This document shows, one piece after another, positions 6,814-63,203 of a stretch of DNA of 64,000 bases. How positions within the stretch are numbered: position 1 is the first letter of the stretch; each line of letters begins with the position of its first letter. Origin of the DNA: an uncultured bacterium (lineage in GTDB: Bacteria > Actinomycetota > Actinomycetes > S36-B12); contig CAVOYT010000012.1 of NCBI GenBank assembly GCA_963700745.1, forward strand, positions 169,860-233,859, written 5' to 3'. The notes beneath the pieces are model-generated. The model made no database searches, was not told where the DNA came from, and saw nothing but the letters and a program-made list of their open reading frames with translations. The position numbers were made by a program, and so were the translations under genes.

Positions 6814-7362
6814 CTAGGCGCGCTGGGCGAGCAGCCAGATGAAGCTCTGCGTCCCGCCGGTCGGGGTGACGTGCTCCTCGCGCCGGGTGTCCAGGACGGT
6901 GAAGCCCTCCCCCATCGCCTCGGCGAGCTCGTCGTGCGCGTAGCGGGTGATCGGCAGGCCGGAGCACATCTCGGGGCCGTCCTCGGCGAAGGTCGCCACG
7001 ATGACGTGCCCACCGTGCGGCACGCTCTCGCGCACCAGGTGCCAGTAGCGCTGCTGGTCGTCGGGGTCGGTGAGGAAGTGATAGGCCGCCCGGTCATGCC
7101 ACACGTCGAACGTGCGGTCCGGCTGCCAGTCCCGGATGTCCGTGACCACCCAGGTGACCGGCGAGTCGCCGATGCGCGCGTGCGCGGCGTTGAGCGCCTG
7201 CTGGCTGAGGTCGACGACGGTGACGTCGCGGTAGCCCGCGTCGAGCAGGCGGTCGACGAGCCGGCTCGCTCCCCCGCCCACGTCGACCACGCTCGCGGAG
7301 TGATCCGCCACCGCCTCGATCAGCTCCAGGCTCACCTGCGGGGTGTCCTGGAACCACGACAC
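6814..7362 (-). CDS. Class I SAM-dependent methyltransferase
   Basis: VVDVGGGASRLVDRLLDAGYRDVTVVDLS is SAM motif I. The in-frame upstream peptide SSEYWDHRYATIGDTN, and a GTG at 7450 that overlaps the UPF0182 stop (GTGA), suggest the true start is at 7450 with one frame change near 7430. Confidence 0.8.
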   Translation of the reverse strand: MSWFQDTPQVSLELIEAVADHSASVVDVGGGASRLVDRLLDAGYRDVTVVDLSQQALNAAHARIGDSPVTWVVTDIRDWQPDRTFDVWHDRAAYHFLTDPDDQQRYWHLVRESVPHGGHVIVATFAEDGPEMCSGLPITRYAHDELAEAMGEGFTVLDTRREEHVTPTGGTQSFIWLLAQRA

Positions 7363-7446
7363 GTTCGTGTCCCCGATCGTCGCGTACCGGTGGTCCCAGT
7401 ACTCGCTGCTGCCGGGGGCGGGGGCGCTCGTGGTCGGTTCCGGCGC

Positions 7447-10445
7447 TCACGCCGCCGTGCCCTCGGACTGCACCTCGTCCGGCGGGGCGGTCTCCTGCGG
7501 GGTCGTCGCCCCTCCGCTGAGCTCGGCCTGGGCGATGGCGGCCGCGTCCAGCGCGCGCTTCAGGCGCTCCTGCGCCACGCCGTAGGCGGCGAAGTCGCCC
7601 TGGCCAGCGCCAGCTCGCCGTCGCTGTAGGCGGCCTGGGCCTCGGCGAGCGCGATCGCCAGGTCCGTCGCGGGATCCCCGCTGCTCGGCGTCGTCGGTTC
7701 CGGGGTCGGCGTCGGCGTCGTGCCGCCATCCGTGCCGCCGCCCTGGTCAGGCACCGGCTCGGCGGTCGAGTCCGGTGAGGCGCCGAGCACCTTCGCCAGC
7801 GCCACATCGAGGGTGTTCTCCATCGCCACGTTGGCGCCGTAGCCGACCAGCACCTTGCGCAGCAGCGGGTAGCCCTCGGTGTTCGCGCGCAGGAAGACCG
7901 GCTCGATGTAGAGCAGGCCGCCGTTGAACGGCAGGCTGAGCAGGTTGCCCAGCTCGACGTCGGAGCCGCCCTGGCGCAGCAGCGACAGCTGCGAGCTCAC
8001 CAGCGGGTCGGACTCGAAGTTGTTCTGCACCTGCTGCGGGCCCGGGATCGTCGTGTTGCTGGGCAGCTGCAGCACGCGCATCTTGCCGTAGCCCTCGCCG
8101 GGTTTGGAGTCCACCGCCATGAAGGCGGCAAGGGTCTGCCGTCGTTGCGGGGCGAACGTCGTCGTCAGCGAGAAGGTCGGCTCATCCTGGTCCGGCATCT
8201 GCAGCGTCAGGTAGTACGGCGGCTGGAACACCTGCGCCGGGCTCACCGTCGGGTCGTTCGGGACGATCCACACGTCGGTGCCGTTGTAGAACGTGGACGC
8301 GTCGGTGACGTGGTAGCGGCTCAGGATCGTGCGCTGGATCTTGAACATGTCCTGCGGGTACCGCACGTGCGCCAGCACCTGCTCGGACATGTTCTCGCGC
8401 GGCTCGACGATCCCGGGGAAGGCGTTCATCCACGTCAGCAGCACCGGGTCGGTCGGATCCCAGGCGTACAGCGTCACGGTGCCGTCGAACGCGTCGACGA
8501 CGGCCTTCACCGAGTTGCGCACGTAGTTGGCCTGGTCACGCGGGAGCAGGCTGCTGGGCAGGGTGCGCGAGCTGACCGAGTCGCTCGTCGCCTCGCTCAG
8601 GCTGACGCGACTGCTGTACGGGTACTCGTTCGACAGCGTGTACCCGTCGACGATCCACTTGATCCCGCCGTCCGCCGCCACGGGATACGGATCCTGGTCG
8701 AGGGTCAGCCACGGGGCGACCTTCTCGACGCGGGTGAGCGGATCGCGGTCCCACATGATCCGGGACTCCGGGTTGACCAGGTCCGACAGCAGGATGTTGG
8801 CGTCCTGGAACTTCGTCGCGAAGAGCAGTCGCCCGAACAGCGAGCCCATCGGCACGCCGCCCGTGCCGTCGTACGTGTTGGTCTTCTGGCCGGTCGGGCT
8901 GGCGTCGTCCGGGTAGTCGAGCTCGACCGGCGTCGAGCCCTCCGGCGCCCCGACGATGCTGTAGGGCGGCGAGAGCTCGCCGAAGTACACCCGCGGCTGG
9001 TCGACGTTCAGGGCGCCGGTCGGCGGGATGTCGCTCTCGAAGAAGTCCGGCTGGCCGTTCGACAGCGCCGTGTTGTCGTACGCCGCCACCATGCCGTAGC
9101 CGTGCGTGTAGACGGCCTTGTCGTTGGTCCAGTTGCGCTGGCCGTCGGGGATGCCGGCGAGGTTGATCTCGCGGACGGCGACGACGGCGCCGCGCCGGCG
9201 CTGGTCCTCGAGGTCGTAGCGGTCGACGTCGAGCTTGGTGTTGAACGAGTAGTAGCCGCGGATCTGCTGCAGCTGGTTGTAGGTCGGCGACACCACGGCC
9301 GGGTCGAGCAGGCGGATGTTGCTCAGCGTGCCGGCAGCTGGCCTCGAGCACCTCCGGCGGTCGGCGGCGAGACCGTGCCCGCGTAGTCGGAGACCTCGGA
9401 GTCCGCGATGTCGTACGCATCGCGCGTGGCGTTGATGTTGCGCTCGAGGTACGGCTGCTCGCGGACGAGCTCGCTCGGCTTCACCTGGAACTGCTGGACG
9501 ATCAGCGGGTAGACCGTGCCCACGACGAGGCTGGTGACGACGAGCAGCCCGGCGCCGATCACCGGGATCACCCAGTGACGCCGGAACGCGTTGACGAAGA
9601 ACAGGGCCGCCACGAGGATCGATGACGGCCGCGAGGATGTTCAGCGCCGGCAGCACCGCGTAGACGTCGGTGTACTTCAGCCCGGTGAAGCCGGACACGA
9701 GCTGCTGGCTCTGCGTCGCCAGGGCGAAGCGGTCGAACCAGTAGGACACCGCCTTGACCAGGACGAACAGGCCGATCAGGATGCTGAGCTGCGTCTGGGC
9801 CGCACCGGACGCGCGGTCGCCGCGGGGCTGCAGGCGCAGGCCTCCGTAGATGTACTGGACGGCGACGACGGCGAGGATGCACAGGAAGATCACGCCGAAG
9901 GCGAAGCCGATGACGAAGCGGATGAACGGCAGCGTGAACGTGAAGAAGGACAGGTCCAGGCCGAACTGCGGGTCCTCGATGCCGAACGGCACCGCGTTGC
10001 GCCACAGCAGGTAGGTGCCCCACTCGGCGGCTGCCGTCAGGCCCGTGACGAGGCCGAGGGCGATCGAGATGAGGATGGTGAACCGCCGGCGATACGGCTC
10101 GATCGCGATCCGGTAGCGCTCGAGCGACGCCTGCTCCGGGGTCATGCCGCGGAACGTCGGTCGGGTGCGCCAGGCGATCCACATCGACAGTCCGACCGCC
10201 AGGCCCATGATCGTGCCGAAGGCGACGAACATCACCGCGCGGGTGACCAGCGAGGTGGTGAACACCTGGGTCTTGTCGACCGATACGAACCACAGCCAGT
10301 CGGTGTAGAAGCCGGCGAAGAGCACGAAGCCCCCGACCAGGACGGCCAGGATGATGATGGTGGGCAGCAGCACGCCACGACGGCGAGGGGCCGCCTCCGT
10401 CGTGGGGGCGCCCGAACCGCCCATGCCGGGCATCTCGAAGGTCAC
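7447..10445 (-). pseudogene. UPF0182 family polytopic membrane protein (Rv3193c-like), frame broken as sequenced (at least 4 changes)
   Basis: Track ORF 7560..10445 holds most of the protein. The segment 9330-9613 is correct only in the ORF 9323..9613 frame (AALFFVNAFRRHWVIPVIGAGLLVV...). The last ~55 codons (QGDFAAYGVAQERLKRALDAAAIAQ...) are in a third frame, which stops at 7447-7449. Confidence 0.8.
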
Positions 10446-10454
10446 CTTGACAAC

Positions 10455-11653
10455 CTACGTCACCGGGACGGGGCATGCGCCCACGGGTTTGCCAGCGGCG
10501 TAATCCTGGATGGCGGTCGACCGCGTCGGTCAGCGTCTCGACGGGCACCACGGTCAGTCCGTCCGGGATGTGCCCGACGGCCTCGTCGCAGTTCTCCTCC
10601 GGCATGACGAACAGGGTGGCGCCGGCGTCCCGGGCCCCGGCGAGCTTCTGCCGGATGCCGCCGATCGGCCCCACCGTCCCGTCCGGCTCGATCGTGCCGG
10701 TGCCGGCGATGTAGTTGCCGCCGGTCAACGACTCGGGGGTCAGCTTGTCGACGATGCCGGTCGCGAACATCAGTCCGGCACTGGGTCCGCCGACGGATTC
10801 GAGGGTGAAGTCGATCGGGAAGTCGGCGGAGTAGCAGCTCGCCGACGCCGATGCCGATGAACGGCGTCTCGCGGGTTGTCCGGGTTCGACACGGACGTCA
10901 GCGTGACCGTCTGCTCGACGTCGTCCTCCATCTCCCCGTCGACCTCGACGCCGTCCCGCACGATCACGATGTCGAAGGAGGTGCCGATCGGATTCGACGC
11001 GAATCGTCTCGGCGACCTGCTGCGCCCTCGTCGACCTCGACGCCGTCGAGACTCTTGATCTCGTCCTTCGGCAGCAGGACGCCGTCGGCAGGGGTGTCCG
11101 CGTAGACGGCGTTGACGACGACCTGAGCGCGGACCGGTCGGTCGAGGTAGTCCATGGCGGCGGCGACGGCGTTCGACTCCGACGTGCTGAACAGCAGCGC
11201 CTGCCGCTTCTGCACGTCCTCGCCGCTCACGTCGTCGGGGAACAGCAGCTCACGCGGCACGACGGCGTCGGCGGGGTCCAGCCACGAGGCGATCGCGTCG
11301 ACGAAGGTCAGGCCGCCGCGGGGACCACCGGACTCCAGCACCGTGGTCATGTCGAGGTTGCCGGTCACGGGGAACGTCTCGGTACCGCTGATCTCGATGA
11401 CGGGCCGACCGTCGTCCTCGCCGATGACGTTGAACGTCGGGCCGGGGGCCAGCTTCACGAAGGGCACGGGGAGCAGGAACGCGATGGCGATGAGGACGAG
11501 GGTCGTCGCCGAGCTGATGATGAGCATCCAGCCGCGGCGGGACGGATGCATGACCGCATGCCACCAGCCGGTGTCGTCGGCGGCCACGTCGTCCAGGAAG
11601 ACGTCGAGCGGCGCCTGCGACGGATCGGGCGCCTCGTCCTGCCGATCGCTCAC
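10455..11653 (-). pseudogene. PDZ domain plus Lon-like S16 peptidase (YlbL/Rv3194c-like), frame broken as sequenced (at least 4 changes)
   Basis: Pieces are WMLIISSATTLVLIAIAFLLPVPFVKLAPGPTFNV... (ORF 10964..11860), IVIVRDGVEVDGEM (ORF 10770..10967), and SVGGPSAGLMFATGIVDKLTPESLTGGNYIAGTGTIEPDGTVGPIGGIRQKL (ORF 9568..10770). The GTG start at 11653 overlaps the upstream stop. Restoring one base gives a C-terminus AVDAIQDYAAGKPVGACPVPVT and a TAG stop at 10455. Confidence 0.75.
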
Positions 11654-11931: not shown

Positions 11932-12070
11932 CGCAGCGGTTCCCCGCAAGGGTACGCGGTCTGCGGGCCGGTCGCTTGCCGCGGACGGGCCGAAAGCGAC
12001 GGACCCCCGGGGCTCTCCGCTTCGTTCGCCTTCCCCTTGCGAACGAGCGTGTTATCCCGGGGGTCCAACG
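11932..12070 (-). promoter_or_regulatory. Structured 5' leader with three hairpins upstream of 11931
   Basis: An 11-bp stem pairs 12001-12011 with 12056-12066 and encloses an inner hairpin (12018-12029 with 12039-12049). A second hairpin pairs 11971-11977 with 11994-12000. A third pairs 11943-11948 with 11962-11967, and its 3' arm on the transcript contains the GGGGA Shine-Dalgarno. Confidence 0.45.
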
Positions 12071-12076
12071 GCGTCG

Positions 12077-12106
12077 AACCTAGGTACTGCGGCGGGAGTG
12101 AGTCAA
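12077..12106 (-). promoter_or_regulatory. Predicted sigma-A type promoter reading leftward
   Basis: On the minus strand: TTGACT (12106-12101), an 18-nt spacer, then TAGGTT (12082-12077, fits TANNNT). Confidence 0.45.
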
Positions 12107-12133
12107 TCCGAACGACACATCCCGTTCACCCGC

Positions 12134-12276
12134 CCTGTGGATGTCCTGTGCACGCCCTGTTGACGCACCCGCGTGTCGCTGTGGACGAGGGGTGCATACA
12201 GCTGGGGATGAACCTGAGGATGACCCTGCAAACACCCCTGTGACCAGCAGAAACGTCGCGTCGGTCGCCTGTGGAG
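12134..12276. repeat. Phased array of nine short direct repeats, consensus CCTGTGGAY (minus strand RTCCACAGG)
   Basis: Sites start at 12134 CCTGTGGAT, 12145 CCTGTGCAC, 12156 CCTGTTGAC, 12178 GCTGTGGAC, 12201 GCTGGGGAT, 12213 CCTGAGGAT, 12225 CCTGCAAAC, 12237 CCTGTGACC and 12268 CCTGTGGAG. Spacings are 11, 11, 22, 23, 12, 12, 12 and 31 nt. Confidence 0.7.
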
Positions 12277-12306
12277 GAAAATTCGTCGGGCTGGTTTACC
12301 CCCCGT

Positions 12307-12726
12307 TTACCTCCCGGTCGCGGTGTCGATCATCGCCCGGACCGCGGCATCCAGCCCCTCGGGGAGATCGTCCAGCGCGAACCAGCGCAGATCGTCCGAC
12401 TCGTCGCTGATGACCTCCTGGGCGTCGCGGGGCACCAGAGCCAGGAACTCCACGTCCCAGTGCACGCTCATGTCACCGGCGCACCTGACCGGATGACGAT
12501 CGAGCCGGATCGGTGCAGCCGACATCGTCACGTCGAGGATCCCGCTCTCCTCGCGCGTCTCGCGGATCGCCGCCGCCCGGATCGACGCATCCCCGATCTC
12601 GTTGTGGCCGCCGAGCTGCAGCCAGCGGCCGGCCTTGGGATGCAGCGTCAGCAGCACGCGGCTCAGGTCCTCGTCCAGGACCAGGGCGCTGGACGTCAGG
12701 TGGCCCGGCCGGGACTCACGGGACAT
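12307..12726 (-). CDS. NUDIX hydrolase
   Basis: Nudix box in GGHNEIGDASIRAAAIRETREESGI. Confidence 0.85.
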   Translation of the reverse strand: MSRESRPGHLTSSALVLDEDLSRVLLTLHPKAGRWLQLGGHNEIGDASIRAAAIRETREESGILDVTMSAAPIRLDRHPVRCAGDMSVHWDVEFLALVPRDAQEVISDESDDLRWFALDDLPEGLDAAVRAMIDTATGR

Positions 12727-12856: not shown

Positions 12857-14309
12857 TCACGCCGGCGGATCGCCCGCGTCCGCCGGGTCGTCCGGATCGG
12901 CCGTCTCGTCCGGAGCAGCTGACGCGTCCGATCGGCCGTCTCGTCCGGTCACGCTCGAACTCCAGCTCGGACGCGCTGTCCTCGATGAAGCCCAGCGGAT
13001 CCGCGAGATCGTCCGGGCCAGGCAGCAGGTCGGGGTGCGCCCAGAGCGCGTCGCGGGCATCGATGCCCGCGGCCGGCACGCACGACGGCGAACAGGGTGG
13101 CCGCCTCGCGGGCCAGTCGAGGACGAAGCTCCATGCCGACGAGGGTCGCGAAGGTCTTCTCCGCCGGCCCCCCGGCTGCTCGCCGACGACGGATCGTCTC
13201 GCGCAGCTGCACCGCGGACGGCAGGCGCTCGGCGATCGCCTGGTCCGACGACGTCGTCGACCCAGCCCTCGACCAGCGCGAGCAGGGTCTCCAGCCGGGC
13301 GATGGCCGCCCGCTGCTCCTCGGTGTCCTCCGGCTGCAGCAGCCCGCTGCCCATCAGCTCCTGAAGCGCCTGCGGGTTGGTCATGTCGACGTCGCCCATG
13401 GCCTCCGCCAGACGTGACTGGTCGACGTGCACGCCGCGGGCGTACTCCTCGACGGCACCGTTGATCCGCGGGCGCAGCCACGGCACGTGCGCGAACAGGC
13501 GCTGGTGCGCAGACTCGCGCAGGGCGAGGTACAGGCGCACGTCATCGACCGGCAGGCCGAGCCCCTCGCCGAACGCGTCGACGTTGCGCGGCAGCAGCGC
13601 CGGCACCGGGTGCTCGGTCAGCGGCATGCCGATATCGGAGGAGCTGACGACGTCGACGCGAGGCCGGCGAGCGCCTGGCCGAGCTGCATGCTGAACGCGG
13701 CCGCGCCGAGCTGCTGCATCATGCCGAGCATCGGGCCCATCATCTGGGCCATCTCCGGGGGGATCCCGCCGGGGAACATGCTCGCGCAGCTGCTCGGGCA
13801 GGTTCTCGCTCAGGGCCGTCAGGTCCAGCTCCTGGCCGGCGGCGCCGGGAAGGCTCTGGCCGACGACCTGCTGCATGTGCTCGGCGATCGGCTCGACGAT
13901 CACGCGCCAGGCGGGAGCGGTCGCCTCGAGCCATTCCGAGCGGCTCCAGGCCTCGGGCGCCGCCGTCGTGGCCGGGAAGGTGACGGCCGGGTCGAGCCAC
14001 ACGTCCGCGAGGCGCACGGCGTCGACGACCGCGCGCCGGTCGGCGTCGCCCACCGACGGGTCGCCGCCGCCCTGCACGAGCGTCTTGCGGGCCACGTCGG
14101 TGACCATCGACCAGTTGACCGGGCCGCCGGCGTCGGCGCCGGTCTGACCGGACTGCATCATCGCGCCGAGCTGCTGCAGCGCAGCGCCCGAGCGAGCTCA
14201 TGTCGAAGCCGCCGGGACCGAAGCCGAAGCCGGGGCCACCCGGGTTGCCGGGGCCACCCGGACTGTCGGGGTCGTCGCCACCCATGCCGAAGCCAAACGG
14301 AACGCTCAT
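12857..14309 (-). pseudogene. Zinc-dependent metalloprotease family (Rv3195-like, DUF2342/TIGR03624-type), frame broken as sequenced (at least 4 changes)
   Basis: N-terminus MSVPFGFGMGGDDPDSPGGPGNPGGPGFGFGPGGFDMSSLG. Core from ORF 12857..14161: NWSMVTDVARKTL...LYLALRESAHQRLFAHVPWLRPRINGAVEEYARG...EEQRAAIARLETLLALVEGW. Tail from ORF 12696..13481: ALWAHPDLLPGPDDLADPLGFIED. Confidence 0.7.
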
Positions 14310-14504: not shown

Positions 14505-14660
14505 TTAGGCCTTGCCCAGAATGCGGGTCACCTTGGTGCCGCACACGGGGCAGATGCCCTTGGCGAAGCGGCGGCCGTTCGTCTCCTCGACGTGGCCGGT
14601 GAACTCCCGCTTCTCCTTGCACTTCACGCAGTACGCCTCGCCGGTGTAGCTCTCGGCCAT
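14505..14660 (-). CDS. DUF5679-type zinc-ribbon small protein (51 aa)
   Basis: Below the track cutoff. My translation is MAESYTGEAYCVKCKEKREFTGHVEETNGRRFAKGICPVCGTKVTRILGKA (CxxC...CxxC). AGGAGGG RBS upstream. Confidence 0.8.
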   Translation of the reverse strand: MAESYTGEAYCVKCKEKREFTGHVEETNGRRFAKGICPVCGTKVTRILGKA

Positions 14661-14844
14661 GGGGCCCTCCTGTATGTCCGTCAGTACCGCGTGGCCGCGG
14701 TCGGCGGCTGTGTGCCACCTAGGGGTTGCCCCCGATTGGTCGGCTCAACGATAGGGCAGCCACGAGGGCCATTCCAGCCACGCGCAACGTCAGATCACCG
14801 CGTGGCGTGATTCATCCTGTGGATAATTACGGATATATGGGATA

Positions 14845-15597
14845 TTACGGTACTTTTCGGTAGCACCAGGTTCGCGGCGATTCCGTCCTCCCACGAGGCG
14901 CCGTCGGCAGCGACCGCACCGTCCGGGGCCCGCACAGCTCGGCCGCCCGCTCCTGAGCACGACACGACCCGGGGTAGTCGTCGTAGAGCGCGGACCACAG
15001 GATCCACGCCGTGACCTGCCATCGCGGCCGGCTCGAGCACCGCACGGTGATCGGCGGCGCGAGCGCCCGGCGGCCGTCCTCGGCGGACGAGCAGTGCCGC
15101 AGGGCGCGCGTGGTTCGCCGGGCGCATGCGGTCGAACGAGGTGCGTCAAGGTGCACCAGCGTCGCCGGCGCCGGCCCGTCGGTACCGCACCGCGACCGCG
15201 CCGCACACGTACTGGTTCGGGCGGCAGCGACGAAGGAACGCGCCTCGATGCGGATCGGATCCTCGATGATGCCCGCCATCGGAGGTGTTGACGCCGACCG
15301 CGGTCCACACGTCAAGGAGGCCGCAGCGATCCTGGGCGAACTCGATCGGCGTTGACGTCCATCGGGACCAGCGCCGTCTCGGTGACCTCGAAGGTGTGCG
15401 GCTCCGTGCACGGCACCGGCGCCGGTATCCGCCCAGTAGTCGTCGCCGGCCTGCTCGTCCGTCAGGTCGTAGCACTCGCCCACGATCGGACGCGCTCGAC
15501 TGGCCTCGCCGGGACGCGCGAGGCACGGGCAGGCCGGTACGAACGGGGTGCGGCAGAACGGCGGCCGCGGCGAGAGATCACCAGCCGCTCGTCGCAT
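14845..15597 (-). pseudogene. Septum-formation family protein (two Cys-containing repeats), heavily frame-broken as sequenced
   Basis: Stitching three frames gives IVGECYDLTDEQAGDDYWADTGAGAVPCTEPHTFEVTETALVPMDVN..FAQDRCGLLDVWTAVGVNTS..IEDPIRIEARSFVAA and a second unit ITVRCSSRPRWQVTAWILWSALYDDYPG..AQERAAELCGP...SWEDG..RTWCYRKVP. The start and exact joins are uncertain. Confidence 0.5.
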
Positions 15598-19242: not shown

Positions 19243-19885
19243 TGACCGCCAGCCGTACCACCCGTCGCCTCCTCACCGCCGCAGCCGCGGTGCCCTTGTC
19301 GTCAGCGCCCCCGGCTTCGTGTCGGTCGCGTCGGCGCACAACAACGACGGAACCGGCGGCCGGGGCGGACTGACGTCCGAGCTGGCGACCAACACCGCAC
19401 TCGTGACGGCCGTCAAGGCGGCGCGCACCGAGTACAAGGCCTCAGCGAAGGCCGCTAGTGACGCCTACCGCGCCGCCACCGCTGGCGCCCGGGACGCGAT
19501 CGTGGCAGCGACCCAGACCCAGCGTGATGCCTTCAAGGCCGCTCGCGACGCCTACCGCGCGGCCCGCCTGGCCGGCGGCGACACCTCGGCTGCAAGCGCG
19601 GCGCTCACGACCGCGTCGAACGCCCTCCGCGACGCCGTCACCGCAGCGAAGGCCGACCAGCAGAAGGTCTTCGACGACGCGGGCGCCACTGCCAAGGCCT
19701 CACTCGCTAGCGCCCTGACCACGTACCAGGCCGCCATCAAGGCGGCGTTCGCCACCTACGCCCCGGATGTCGCCGTGCCGGATGCCCTGCTCACCCCCGG
19801 CGCCAAGCACGGCAGGGGCGTCGGCACGTGGCTCGGCCACAGCCATGGCCACGGCCAAGGACACGGCGGTCGGAACCACCGATAG
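19243..19885 (+). pseudogene. Secreted Ala-rich helical protein with a His/Gly-rich tail; one frame change in the signal peptide (~19290)
   Basis: MTASRTTRRLLTAAAAV, then a G appears to be missing. Restoring it gives ALVVSAPGFVSVASA, joining track ORF 19319..19885. The C-terminus is WLGHSHGHGQGHGGRNHR. Confidence 0.6.
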
Positions 19886-19899
19886 CCCTCGAACGATCA

Positions 19900-19936
19900 C
19901 CAGACGCGGCGTTGGAGATGCGAACGCCGCGTCTGG
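19900..19936 (+). terminator. Perfect 14-bp stem hairpin after the 19885 stop, spanning the GNAT start codon
   Basis: ccagacgcggcgtt (19900-19913), loop ggagatgcg, aacgccgcgtctgg (19923-19936), followed by tctt. Confidence 0.5.
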
Positions 19937-20495
19937 TCTTGCGTCCGCTGCGTGCAGATGACTGCGCGGCGCTCGTCGATCTGCACTCACACCCGGATGT
20001 ATGGCAGGTCTTCGGCGACGATCCGGTCGACGTCACCGCGGCCGCACAGCGGTTCGTGGACGCCTTCCTCGACCGGGACCCAGCTCAGGCGCAAGCGCCG
20101 TGGGCCATCGAGCCGATCGACCGCGAGGACCACGCGGGCGGGCTGATCGGCATCGTCGGACTGTGGCCCACGTCCTGGGAGCCACCGTTCCCGCACCAGC
20201 GAGCCCTGCGTCGAGATCGGCTGGCGACTGGCCCGGCCGTGGTGGGGTCAGGGCATGGTGACCGAGGCGGCCGCCACCTGCCTGGCCCACGCGCATGATC
20301 ACCTCGGGCTCGACGAGGTCGTGGCCTACACCAGTCAGGACAACGTCCGCTCGCAGGCGCGTCATGACCCGGCTCGGCATGCTGCGCGACGCCTCGGCGG
20401 ACTTCGAGCACCCGCGGGTCCCGGTCGGCGACCCGCGTCGTCGGCACGTGGTCTTCCGCACAAACTGGGCGCCACGCCCGAAGCAACCCGCCTAG
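19918..20495 (+). pseudogene. GNAT family N-acetyltransferase (RimJ/RimL-like), frame broken as sequenced (2 changes)
   Basis: MRTPRLVLRPLRADDCAALVDLHSHPDVWQVFG...GLIGIVGLW (ORF 19828..20298), EIGWRLARPWWGQGMVTEAAATCLAHAHDHLGLDEVVAYTSQDN (ORF 20255..), VMTRLGMLRD (ORF 20295..20495). Confidence 0.7.
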
Positions 20496-20502
20496 CGCAC
20501 CA

Positions 20503-20535
20503 GGCCTGTGGATCGCCACTGCCGATCCACAGGCC
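20503..20535. promoter_or_regulatory. 33-bp near-perfect palindrome carrying two inverted copies of the ATCCACAGG motif
   Basis: ggcctgtggatcg (20503-20515) / cgatccacaggcc (20523-20535): a 13-bp perfect stem plus 2 further pairs. Lies between the GNAT stop and the ThiF-like start at 20556. Confidence 0.55.
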
Positions 20536-20555: not shown

Positions 20556-21515
20556 ATGACCGCGCCGCCCCACCACGCCACCGTCGTCGCGCCCATGCTT
20601 CCCGAGCTGGCCGGCTTCGGCCGCCCGCGACTGCGCGGCGATGTGCCGATCCTGTGGCGCGATCAGGCGAGCATCCAGATCGGCGACGACGTCATCGTGG
20701 ACCGGGTCAACCGCTCGCACGTCGCCTGGCTCACCTCGCTGGACGGGCTCCGGTCACCGCAGGAGATCGAGGACGACCTGGCCCTGCCCGCCACTGATGC
20801 CCGCCGGCTCCTGAGGTCCCTTCTCCACGCGGGCGCCCTGGATGACGCGGCGCGGATCCCCGACGCGATGCGCTGGGCCGCTCCGGGCGACCGGGAGTCC
20901 GTCAGCCGACGCTTCGGCTCCGCCCTGCGCGCCTACCGCCGCCTCGACGCGGCCTACGACGCCGATGGCGGGCCGGGACCGCTGCCGCGTCGCGATCCTC
21001 GGCGACGGTCCGCTGGCAGACGAGGCCCGGGCCGCGATCGAGGCCGCCGGACTCCCCGTCGGGGACGCCGACGACGCCACCGTCACCGTCCTGGCCGACG
21101 GCCTGCACCCCGACGTCCCCGCGCGGTTCGACCATGCCTGCCTCGATCGCCCGCACCTTCCGCTGGCCACGCTGGGAGAGCGCGCCGTCGCCGGCCCGAT
21201 CGTCGTGCCGGGGCGCACCGGCTGCCTGAGGTGCGCGCACCTGCACCGCAGGGATGGTGATCCGGCCTGGCCCCTGCTGTCCGTCCAGTGGTCGCAGGCA
21301 CTGCGCGGCGATGGCGAGCCCGCCGGTCGATCCGCTGCTCATGCGCCTGGCCGCAGCACAGGCAGCACTGCTGGTCCGCGCGTGGGCGGACGCGCCCGAC
21401 GATCCCGCCTCGCTGGGGCGGGTTCGCGTGGGAGCTGACCCTCCCGGACGTGCGGGCCCGCCGGGTGCCACGTCCGGCTCATCCGCTGTGCGGGTGCCGC
21501 TGGCCCGACGCGTAG
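20556..21515 (+). pseudogene. ThiF/E1-like fold protein (TOMM-docking/ThiF family, Rv3196-position), frame broken as sequenced (about 3 changes)
   Basis: RPRLRGDVPILWRDQASIQIGDD...WLTSLDGLRSPQEIE, RVAILGDGPLADEARAAIEAAGL...PHLPLATLGERAVAGPIVVPGRTGCLRCAHLHRRDGDPAWPLL, and the tail WELTLPDVRARRVPRPAHPLCGCRWPDA. Confidence 0.5.
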
Positions 21516-21560
21516 GGACGCGCCCTCGCGCCCGAGCACGACTCAGGCGACAATGGGCAG

Positions 21561-22876
21561 GTGTCCGACATCCCGAGGTTCGCGCTGACGCGCAGCGTGA
21601 AGATCGCTGCGCTGCCGGCGTCGTACGCGGGCCGCCAGGCCTGGGGTTTCGGCAAGCGCCTCGGCGGCAAGCCGGCCGAGGCCGTGACGGCCGAACTGCA
21701 GGCCCGCACGGCCGAGCAGATGTTCAAGGTCCTCGGCGAGCTCAAGGGCGGCGCCATGAAGATGGGCCAGGCCATGAGCATCTTCGAGGCCGCGATGCCC
21801 GAGGAGATGGCGGGTCCCTACCGAGCCGCGCTCACCAAGTTGCAGGAGGCCGCTCCCCCGCTGCCGGCGGAGTCGATCCACGCAATCCTCGCGGAGGAGC
21901 TCGGCGAAGACTGGCGCGAGCGCTTCGCCGAGTTCGACGACCGGCCCGCCGCCGCGGCGTCGATCGGCCAGGTCCACAAGGCGACGTGGCACGACGGCCG
22001 CGTCGTCGCCGTCAAGGTGCAGTACCCGGGCGCCGACAAGGCGTTCATCTCGGATCTGAACCAGATGACCCGGATGGGCAAGCTGTTCGCGTCCTGGATC
22101 CCCGGCATGGACATCAAGCCGCTGCTGGAGGAGCTCAAGGAGCGGGCCATCGAGGAGCTCGACTACCTGCGCGAGTCACGCAACCAGCGCGCCTTCGCGG
22201 TCGCCTTCGAGGGCGATCCCGGAGTACGTCGTCCCCCACGTGCTCGCGGCCGCGCCCCACGTCATCGTCTCCGAATGGGTCGACGGCCGGCCACTCTCGT
22301 CGATCATCACGGACGGCACCCAGGAGGAGCGCGACCGCGCCGGCGAGCTGTACGAGCGGTTCCTGCTCGCCGGCCCGGCGCGCGCCGGACTGCTGCACTC
22401 CGATCCGCACCCCGGCAATTTCCGGATCACGCCCGAGGGCAAGTTCTGCGTCCTCGACTTCGGCGCCGTCGCCGAGCTGCCGGATGGGCTTCCCGACGCC
22501 ATGGGCACGCTGCTGCGCATCGCGATGTCCGGCGATGCCGAGACGGTGGCCGAGGGCCTGCGCGAGGAGGGCTTCATCCGGCCGAACGTCGAGGTCGACC
22601 CCGAGCAGGTGCTCAACTACCTCGCACCCGTTCGTCGAGCCGGCGCGGCACGAGACCTTCCACTTCAACCGCGCGTGGATGCGCGGACAGTTCGGCCGCA
22701 TGAACGATATGCGCAACCCCGACTTCACGATCGGACTCAAGCTCAACCTGCCACCGTCGTACGCGCTGATCCACCGGGTGTGGCTCGGCAGCATCGGGGT
22801 GCTGTGCCAGCTCGACGCGACGGTGCCGATGCGCGCCGAGCTGGAGCGCTGGGTGCCGACCTTCGCCGAGGCCTGA
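21561..22876 (+). pseudogene. ABC1/UbiB-family atypical kinase (Rv3197-like), frame broken as sequenced (2 changes near 22215 and 22630)
   Basis: LKGGAMKMGQAMSIFEAAMPEE...PAAAASIGQVHKATWHDGRVVAVKVQYPG, then HVIVSEWVDGRPL...GLLHSDPHPGNFRITPEGKFCVLDFGAV, then the C-terminus in the 21254..22876 frame. Confidence 0.8.
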
Positions 22877-22897
22877 CGCGCGCCTGCGAGAAGAGAC

Positions 22898-23169
22898 TCA
22901 GGCGTCGGCCAGGCCGGCGACAGTCGGTCTGCGGCGCACGTAGTGCTCGATGACGAGTGCGATGGCCGCACCGACGACCACCGCCACCACGGCGACGATG
23001 ACGGTCTGCCACGACAGCAGGCTGACCGCCCGAATCGATGGCGGCGGAGGGGCTGGTCCCCGGGCCGGCCGGCTCGGGCGGCACCAGCGCCTGGGCGGTG
23101 GGCGCGACCAGCACCACGAGCACGAACGCGGTGATCGAACCAAGGGCTGCAGTGATGCATCTTCCTCAT
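22898..23169 (-). pseudogene. Small secreted/membrane-anchored protein, frame broken as sequenced (2 changes)
   Basis: GGAGGA RBS, then MRKMHHCSP.., FVLVVLVAPTAQALVPPEPAGPGTSP in a second frame, and a C-terminal TM segment SWQTVIVAVVAVVVGAAIALVIEHYVRRR. Confidence 0.4.
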
Positions 23170-62838: not shown

Positions 62839-62972
62839 CGTGAGTCCACTCCCCCGTTGCTCCCCTTGACCGTGCCCCGTCAGGATCGCCCGTCGGCACG
62901 GAATTCGCGAACGGCTGTCCACAGGCGGCCCGTCGGGACGCGGATCGACGCGGGATTTGGCACGATCGGCGG

Positions 62973-63203
62973 GTGACCCCCCGCTTCCTCACCCTCGCGG
63001 ACGTCGCCGAGACGCTGAACATCTCCGCGGCCCAGACCTACGCGCTCGTGCGCAGCGGCGACCTGCCGGCGATCAAGATCGGCGGACGGGGCCAGTGGCG
63101 GGTCGAGTCGACCGCGCTCGAGGAGTTCATCGCCCGCCAGTACGCGCAGACCCGTGAGTTCGTGCGCACCCATCCCTTCGGCGCGGACGAGCCGCCGGAC
63201 TGA
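62973..63203 (+). CDS. Excisionase/MerR-type helix-turn-helix DNA-binding protein
   Basis: FLTLADVAETLNISAAQTYALVRSGDLPAIKIGGRGQWRVESTALEEFI. Confidence 0.8.
   Translation: MTPRFLTLADVAETLNISAAQTYALVRSGDLPAIKIGGRGQWRVESTALEEFIARQYAQTREFVRTHPFGADEPPD

Follow-up and report, generated by a model that had tools for sequence, protein, structure and literature searches.

In a 64,000-nucleotide (nt) stretch of DNA from an uncultured actinobacterium of the GTDB lineage S36-B12 (contig CAVOYT010000012.1 of assembly GCA_963700745.1; hereafter the window), the intergenic region between a NUDIX gene and the gene for a small membrane protein carries a series of 9-mers of the form CCTGTGGAY, or RTCCACAGG when read on the other strand. 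Here we report that these repeats are a conserved DNA operator array of predicted protein-binding sites, which share one face of the helix and precede a predicted small-RNA promoter. The array, its conservation and phase-locking, the promoter elements, the structure of the RNA and its independence were observed directly in the window and its relatives; that a protein binds the units, which protein this is and in which direction it would regulate we infer from the sequence. Direct-repeat operator arrays and regulated small RNA genes are known kinds of elements, and the small RNA found here is one that was previously uncatalogued.

The initial annotation of the window had listed nine 9-mers, all on the plus strand and with start-to-start spacings of 11, 11, 22, 23, 12, 12, 12 and 31 nt, next to a minus-strand promoter made up of TTGACT (12106-12101) and TAGGTT (12082-12077) with an 18-nt spacer, and all of these elements are present in the sequence. 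Six of the nine units differ from CCTGTGGAY by at most one mismatch and lie on one strand inside 143 base pairs (bp), whereas in 500 dinucleotide-preserving shuffles the biggest same-strand cluster within 150 bp comprised four units (once) and mostly one or two. Exact matches to the motif occur five times in the 64-kb window, every one of them intergenic, so that the comparison with shuffled and coding DNA that had been proposed as a check leaves the array standing. A chance or compositional repeat without function would be in line with the modest enrichment of the 9-mer over the whole window (43 matches with at most one mismatch on both strands, against 31.8 expected), but it conflicts with the local clustering and strand bias of the units, with their conserved positions in about 130 loci and with the footprint-like alignment columns. 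In view of the conservation we regard it as refuted.

The motif was defined after viewing the window and later tested on independent loci; conservation is thus a stronger test than clustering. Two samples were used. A UPF0182 protein search yielded 80 genome loci, 44 of which were anchored on the TTGAC of the -35 element; in these 44 loci the UPF0182 protein is 56-100% identical to the reference copy L070 over the first 300 residues, and the G+C content, where computed, is 54-71%. For the second sample, metagenomes were scanned with a pattern for the RNA only (CGGGATAAC-N10-28-CAAGGGGAAGG), which gave 120 loci, about 12 of them chance matches without the hairpin; 86 non-redundant loci had a TTGAC preceded by 200 nt or more of sequence and were used. 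Conservation upstream of orthologous operons, a check that the initial annotation had suggested, was found in the 44 genome loci, in which units start at -168/-167, -115/-114, -103/-102, -80/-79, -58/-57, -47/-46 and -36/-35 and 207 matches face forward against three in reverse. Likewise, at least three forward units were present in 82 of the 86 metagenome loci (394 forward and 16 reverse matches). Outside one clade, the units recur among the 80 genome loci in the same order and orientation wherever the contig extends far enough. Column information peaks at the units and drops in the spacers, like a phylogenetic footprint. The logo of 483 proximal units reads R, T (0.99), C (0.91), C (0.95), A (0.73) or C (0.21), C (1.0), A (0.99), G (0.82) and S (0.96). 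In the distal zone, exact TCCACA is kept in 123 of 129 loci together with a conserved CTATTTTTYn flank, and the GG constraint is much weaker there than in the proximal units.

Alignment of the 44 orthologues also allowed us to judge the nine listed units one by one. Those starting at 12134, 12145, 12156, 12178, 12201, 12213 and 12268 occupy conserved slots, the unit at 12237 is limited to one clade, and the one at 12225 (CCTGCAAAC) was ruled out as a real unit, having no conservation among the aligned orthologues. A conserved unit that the list had lacked lies at 12189-12197, in the ATGCAC slot, which in a second architecture of the array (slot -91) is occupied by GTGAACC. Slot -35/-36 is filled in 40 of the 44 genome loci and in 47 metagenome loci. 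The distal unit is 55 nt away from the rest in the window and 53 nt in relatives, a difference of two bases in an assembly so rich in frameshifts that any single window spacing may err by one or two inserted or missing bases. Two kinds of PHO-box-like elements accompany the units: GTRAAC at about -201 to -204 in 23 of the 44 genome loci, and the GTTCACC box of slot -23, which is found in only about nine of them. The GACACGC block adjoins the central unit and occupies one 11-bp slot in the window and in orthologues; it contains GACAC, the target motif of WhiA. The features are listed in the table, with the units read on the minus strand.

The position of the array relative to the promoter is phased. 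Among the metagenome loci, the unit nearest the promoter begins at -35/-36 in 45, at -24/-25 in 31 and at -14 in three, and hence the array is displaced by whole helical turns; between lineages it shifts as one body, with TTGAC and the RNA always 47-48 nt apart. Displacement by whole turns is expected for a protein complex that has to face the polymerase from one side of the DNA. Using RNAalifold, we found zero conserved pairs within the array on either strand, and this, together with the register fixed to the -35 element, places the function of the array in double-stranded DNA. It is accordingly very improbable that the repeats act, bound by protein, in an RNA transcribed from an upstream promoter, whether by read-through from the NUDIX gene or from a TATTTT element resembling a -10: a terminator was not predicted after the NUDIX gene and TATTTT is conserved 3-4 nt before the distal TCCACA, but conserved structure is absent, and a register that is tied to the -35 and moves by 10-11 bp at a time is characteristic of double-stranded DNA. 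The metagenome loci were fetched by the RNA pattern and also carry the array, from which we conclude that array, promoter and RNA form one module. Collectively, these data bear out the initial view of a dense, same-orientation, approximately 11-bp-phased putative regulator-loading site directly upstream of a predicted TTGACT-18-TAGGTT promoter.

Two natural variants of this arrangement were observed. At metagenome locus L130 (1300-1550), the proximal unit, a GGTGAAC box, the promoter and the RNA are all that is left, directly after a coding region, so that the array is naturally truncated. The other variant is a low-G+C clade (L036, L041, L056, L063, L078 and relatives), which, between the NUDIX and small membrane protein genes, is without the RNA and the long array. 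Two or three units (e.g. ATGCACAGGctGTACACAGT) are retained there in front of the small-membrane-protein/PDZ/UPF0182 genes, among them a pair spaced at 11 nt.

Table. Features of the array, the promoter, the small RNA and the neighbouring genes (window coordinates unless stated; slots are counted from the start of TTGAC)
Feature	Position	Strand	Remark
Methyltransferase gene	6814-7446	-	
UPF0182 gene	7560-10445	-	
PDZ + Lon_C protease gene	about 10450-11600	-	split across three reading frames
Small membrane protein gene	begins at ATG 11932	-	
Conserved block GUACCCUUGCGGGGAACC	11932-11960	-	before the small membrane protein start codon; inverted repeat I7
Intergenic region holding the array	11933-12306		
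Small structured RNA, about 80 nt	11994-12072	-	hairpin 12067-12000, then GCUUUC
RNA example outside the window	L070 4436-4520		
-10 element TAGGTT	12077-12082	-	18 nt past -35; TAGGTT invariant in aligned orthologues, CCTAGGTTC conserved
-35 element TTGACT	12101-12106	-	TTGAC invariant in 20 aligned orthologues; alignment anchor
Lone GTTCACC box (minus: GGTGAAC)	12124-12130	+	slot -23, between array and -35
Promoter-proximal strong unit ATCCACAGG	12134-12142	-	slot -36; exact motif match
Weaker unit GTGCACAGG	12145-12153	-	slot -47
Weaker unit GTCAACAGG	12156-12164	-	slot -58
GACACGC block, not of the repeat type	12171-12177	-	slot -70; kept in alignments
Central strong unit GTCCACAGC	12178-12186	-	slot -80; among the best-conserved alignment columns
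Degenerate unit ATGCACCCC	12189-12197	-	slot -91; ATGCAC columns highly conserved
Unit ATCCCCAGC	12201-12209	-	slot -103
Unit ATCCTCAGG	12213-12221	-	slot -115
Clade-specific unit GGTCACAGG	12237-12245	-	slot -139; only in the window and closest relatives L001, L068-L070
Distal anchor unit CTCCACAGG	12268-12283	-	slot -170 in the window and -168/-167 in relatives; 5' flank T-rich
Two 11-nt direct repeats GTTTACCcccc GTTTACCtccc, PHO-box-like (minus: GGTRAAC)	12294-12315	+	overlap the NUDIX stop codon
NUDIX gene	12307-12726	-	
Zincin_2 gene	12857-14161	-	

The promoter itself escaped a sigma-70 promoter scan, which made no call at this position because TAGGTT fails the -10 rule of the scan. The most conserved part of the whole region is the sequence 3' of TAGGTT, and it folds into a hairpin with an invariant GAUAAC internal loop and a AAGGGGAAG apical loop. 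Compensatory changes occur in 18 of 21 predicted pairs in an alignment of 48 sequences, the copy in the window has a minimum free energy of -48.9 kcal/mol (z -3.7), and in many orthologues a U-run follows 3' of the hairpin. Searches against Rfam 15 returned nothing at gathering score across the whole window, and permissive searches of the region and an orthologue gave matches at chance level. As a side observation, the 5' loop region of the RNA reads GGGAUAACAGGC in some lineages, which presumably resembles a conserved stretch of 23S rRNA.

The initial annotation had proposed that the promoter drives the downstream operon. Our analysis points instead to the structured RNA of about 80 nt, with its terminator-like hairpin, as the predicted first product, and the operon could at best be reached by read-through. 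The gene located 3' of the RNA varies: at 36 loci it is the one for the small membrane protein and at 31 the one for DUF5679, while five loci have an aceE-like gene and three a convergently transcribed NUDIX gene. Two of the latter three loci (L084 and L146) were read closely, and there the stop codon of the convergent NUDIX gene lies a few tens of bases past the hairpin. Genome loci L035, L049 and L061 keep the module next to NUDIX but have gained an aceE-like gene between it and the small-membrane-protein operon. Given these varied downstream contexts, including a convergent gene, the RNA qualifies as a gene of its own: its own predicted promoter, a covarying structure, a terminator-like 3' end and four downstream contexts identify it as an independent small RNA gene. 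As the next start codon is no more than about 60 nt away, the RNA in the window may also serve as a terminating or attenuating leader for the operon encoding the small membrane protein, PDZ-Lon protease and UPF0182. The apical loop CGCAAGGG (12034-12041) is perfectly complementary to CCCUUGCG (11945-11952) in the conserved block before the start codon, and pairing between the two may constitute a translation or termination switch; the loop is invariant and hence offers no covariation signal for this pairing.

The motif is not confined to the array. An inverted pair, CCTGTGGAT-N11-ATCCACAGG, with 13-nt perfect arms in the window (20505-20533), is conserved at L056 712-740, L078 621-649 and L034 441-461, and is thus also present in the clade that lacks array and RNA. 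It lies about 20-24 nt before a ThiF-like gene (24 nt in the window), and in L056 an M20 peptidase gene ends shortly before it; the ThiF-like gene is followed by an ABC1-kinase-like C-terminal sequence, which was recognised by eye and has no Pfam match. A single site is located at 14816 and, in L070, about 160 nt before DUF5679. The sequence upstream of DUF5679 (window 14816-14870; L070 1741-1770; L004 42-70) contains TATCCCAnATnTCGnAAnTTATCCACAGGA; more widely, two or three (A/T)ATGTCC repeats with a spacing of about 10 nt are found there, and the full RTCCACAGG is restricted to the clade nearest the window. Finally, a lone cTGTCCACAGGc at 62917-62925 sits in the divergent region between an HTH_17/excisionase-family gene (62973-63203, plus strand) and a CpaB/ParA-like Tad-type operon on the minus strand; a 6C RNA was looked for near this site and not found.

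We propose that the array works as an operator of seven to nine head-to-tail sites, reading R-T-C-C-A/c-C-A-G-S toward the promoter and set in slots of about 11 bp from about -23 to -115 of the -35 element, with a distal anchor site at -168 and PHO-box-like GTGAAC units filling some slots. A sequence-specific protein would occupy the strong distal, central and proximal units, and then spread cooperatively across the weaker ones. The resulting complex, lying on one face of the helix, would control a near-consensus promoter of the sigma-A type (TTGAC-17/18-TAGGTT) whose primary product would be the conserved hairpin RNA. Given how close the -35 and -10 elements are to consensus, repression or modulation is as plausible as activation. 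As the binder we favour, tentatively, a response regulator of the OmpR/PhoB family, which would bind through its winged helix as tandem head-to-tail dimers with PhoP-type specificity.

Direct repeats with an 11-bp period are the binding mode of the OmpR/PhoB family, and the array shows this pattern, a 6-9-bp unit repeated head-to-tail every 10-11 bp (spacings of 11/12, 11, 22, 23 and 12). The clade without the RNA keeps a plain two-unit 11-nt direct repeat, which we count in favour of such a binder. Streptomyces PhoP is known to bind complex PHO operators, which resemble the array in having many head-to-tail units with an 11-bp period and a strong core beside weaker extension units, and whose GTTCACC/GTTTACC units occur here in the same region and phase. 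Unlike in those operators, most units here do not read GTTCACC but GTGGAY or GTGCAC after a conserved CCT, the -35 is intact and located downstream of the array, not replaced by it, and phoRP genes are not found nearby. In Mycobacterium tuberculosis, the small RNA Mcr7 depends on PhoP, a precedent for the response regulator driving a small RNA gene that we propose here. The published PhoP motifs are TCACAGC-N4-TCACAGC in M. tuberculosis and GTTCACC-N4-GTTCACC in S. coelicolor (PMC4832192). With the former, whose 7-bp motif and 4-bp spacer add up to a tandem head-to-tail 11-bp period (PMC4832192), our units share CACAG(C/G) and match at six of seven positions (CCACAGC). They differ in reading TCCACAG(G/C), with one base changed or added, in numbering seven to nine instead of two or three, in tolerating spacings of 11 or 12 nt where the PhoP spacer is strictly 4 bp, and in occurring also as inverted and single sites. 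Elements of the GTTCACC type are present in only some slots and clades, namely as the 11-nt pair at the NUDIX stop codon, in slot -23 and, in the second architecture, within the array and in phase. By our own count GTGAACCGG and GTCCACAGG agree at six of nine positions, and one protein could therefore read both.

Several observations weigh against this assignment. No gene for an OmpR-type regulator was detected in the window (tblastn with PhoB and NarL) or in 200 related loci (tblastn with MtrA and PhoB); the regulators found in the window are a receiver-cyclase, a receiver-only open reading frame and a LuxR-type helix-turn-helix protein, although a nearby regulator gene is not required of an OmpR/PhoB operator. 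The unit departs from every published motif, with one extra base compared to the MtrA motif GTCACAgcg and C for T compared to the PhoP motif TCACAGC. The conserved inverted pair and the single sites at 14816 and 62917 are unusual for response regulators that bind as tandem dimers, and PhoB-type activation usually replaces the -35 element, which here is near consensus. Moreover, the TCCACA core of the unit is the core of the DnaA box. The suggestion of an OmpR/PhoB-type binder, already made in the initial annotation, thus holds as a best guess with respect to the 11-bp head-to-tail arrangement, and has no matching gene in the window or the 200 loci.

The more specific likeness to MtrA that had been pointed out did not withstand comparison. 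MtrA boxes are also direct repeats with an 11-bp period and share some letters with the units (GTC.ACAG), but the published motifs, GTCACAgcg, c-G-T/A-n-A-C/T-c as 9 nt plus 2 nt, and GtnAcC-n5-GTnAcn (PMC6265350, PMC13189361), place a single base between GT and AC, and our units two. They fit the units only after a one-base deletion, apart from the clade-specific GGTCACAGG, and MtrA was rejected as the binder. The motif TKTTAAGAAM of C. glutamicum MprA does not fit the units either (PMC12113857). Transposon ends, iterons and integrase arm sites were rejected by reasoning alone, from the syntenic position, which is constant in many lineages, and from identified neighbours that are not mobile-element genes. 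The MprA box, presumably a TCTCAGGG-type 8+3 direct repeat, would suit the CTCAGG units and a PDZ-protease target.

Considering the TCCACA core, we also asked how well the units would serve as DnaA boxes, with the strong distal box and two strong proximal ones anchoring the cooperative filling of weak boxes. Such an arrangement would tie synthesis of the small RNA, or a datA-like titration of DnaA, to the replication state of the cell; we regard it as a serious, if less likely, rival. The low-affinity arrays of E. coli oriC, datA and the D78 cluster of Streptomyces are similarly composed of TCCACA-core 9-mers in one orientation with gaps of 2-3 bp, in which strong boxes act as anchors with TCCCCA-type weak boxes between them; in the E. 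coli oriC arrays the gaps are likewise 2 bp wide, and box R1 there reads TTATCCACAGG. Site 14816 has the same letters, TTATCCACAGG, and site 62917 reads cTGTCCACAGG. The DnaA box is TTGTCCACA in M. tuberculosis and S. coelicolor and TTATCCACA in E. coli, and R-TCCACA corresponds to its positions 3-9 (PMC4285127). TCCCCA, the commonest weak variant in our array, equals the weak W box of Caulobacter, and DnaA of M. tuberculosis requires at least two boxes (PMC4285127). The near-invariant distal TCCACA with its T-rich 5' flank and relaxed GG is likewise favourable, and a protein that first binds as a monomer and oligomerises afterwards would account for 9-mers in one orientation with 2-3-bp gaps as well as for single sites and inverted pairs. 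Compared with TT(A/G)TCCACA, however, the units match well at positions 3-9 and have two further conserved positions beyond the box: in proximal units the G at position 10 (0.82) and the G/C at position 11 (0.96) roughly equal the core in conservation. At box position 2, C (0.50-0.55) is more frequent than T (0.32-0.40), and the in-phase GTGAAC and GACACGC slots are no DnaA boxes. The array also differs from the known DnaA-loading sites in being phased to a promoter and in not being near dnaA in the DNA available here, and its distance to the -35, altered by whole turns only, points to a dedicated transcription factor and not to a titration site. In its full form, which we consider improbable, this explanation makes the array a chromosomal DnaA-loading site phase-locked to a small-RNA promoter; the level of the RNA would then report active DnaA and link the initiator directly to post-transcriptional control, and the same box would mark the DUF5679-Zincin_2-NUDIX and ThiF-like/ABC1 units.

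Alternatively, the binder could be a protein of another kind whose gene lies elsewhere and which forms oligomers on direct repeats, e.g. a small BldC/excisionase-type HTH_17 or a ribbon-helix-helix protein; we rate this about as likely as DnaA. The motif does occur in several arrangements (direct arrays, an inverted pair, single sites), and an exact site lies upstream of the HTH_17 gene at 62973-63203, but this one neighbouring site is the sole tie between the HTH_17 protein and the motif. BldC, a small monomeric helix-turn-helix protein, forms filaments by binding variable numbers of direct repeats head-to-tail (PMC5859096). Its sites are contiguous, AT-rich 9-bp repeats (AATTxxxxC; PMC5859096), in contrast to the G+C-rich units with a spacing of 11-12 bp found here, and BldC-like binding was rejected on these grounds. 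The OmpR/PhoB-family regulator remains the binder that we favour.

The window has a G+C content of 70.8%, and its closest relatives are metagenome-assembled genomes of uncultured Actinomycetes and 'Nanopelagicales'. The conserved gene neighbourhood is one that we take to match Rv3193c-Rv3197 of M. tuberculosis, genes of obscure function. The intergenic region measures 374 bp to ATG 11932, and the 357 bp given initially is obtained only with TTG 11949 as the start codon. Several genes of the window shift frame every few hundred bases (10450-11600, 19828-20500 and 20557-22900), and those for the PDZ-Lon protease, a GNAT protein, the ThiF-like protein and the ABC1 kinase are each spread over two or three frames while their orthologues, e.g. 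in L070, are intact; probably this reflects many insertion/deletion errors of the assembly, or else pseudogenes. DUF5679 (L070 1924-2079; about 14505-14660 on the minus strand of the window) is a 51-residue zinc-ribbon protein that is 90-100% identical in nearly all loci, where its neighbours are often just 40-90% identical. Its gene has a conserved -10 element of its own (TAGGGT) and a conserved 5' leader in which apparent hairpins occur (GGTGGCaccaGCCACC, CCGCGGccaCGCGG). DUF5679 was also considered as a DNA binder and rejected, since structural comparison gave just non-significant likeness to ribosomal zinc-ribbon proteins.

This motif, the array geometry and the RNA were not found in the literature that could be searched, and the RNA, being without an Rfam 15 family, could enter Rfam as a new one. 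Were the units DnaA boxes after all, the module would represent a new way of coupling replication to small-RNA control. The motif also marks transcription units beside the neighbourhood that we take to match Rv3193c-Rv3197, and the identity of the binder would give this cluster a physiological signal. A register that changes solely by whole helical turns provides natural evidence for control that depends on the face of the helix. Together, motif, array geometry, promoter and RNA constitute a regulatory module that is common to many uncultured freshwater, soil and marine actinobacteria, organisms for which almost no regulation is known.

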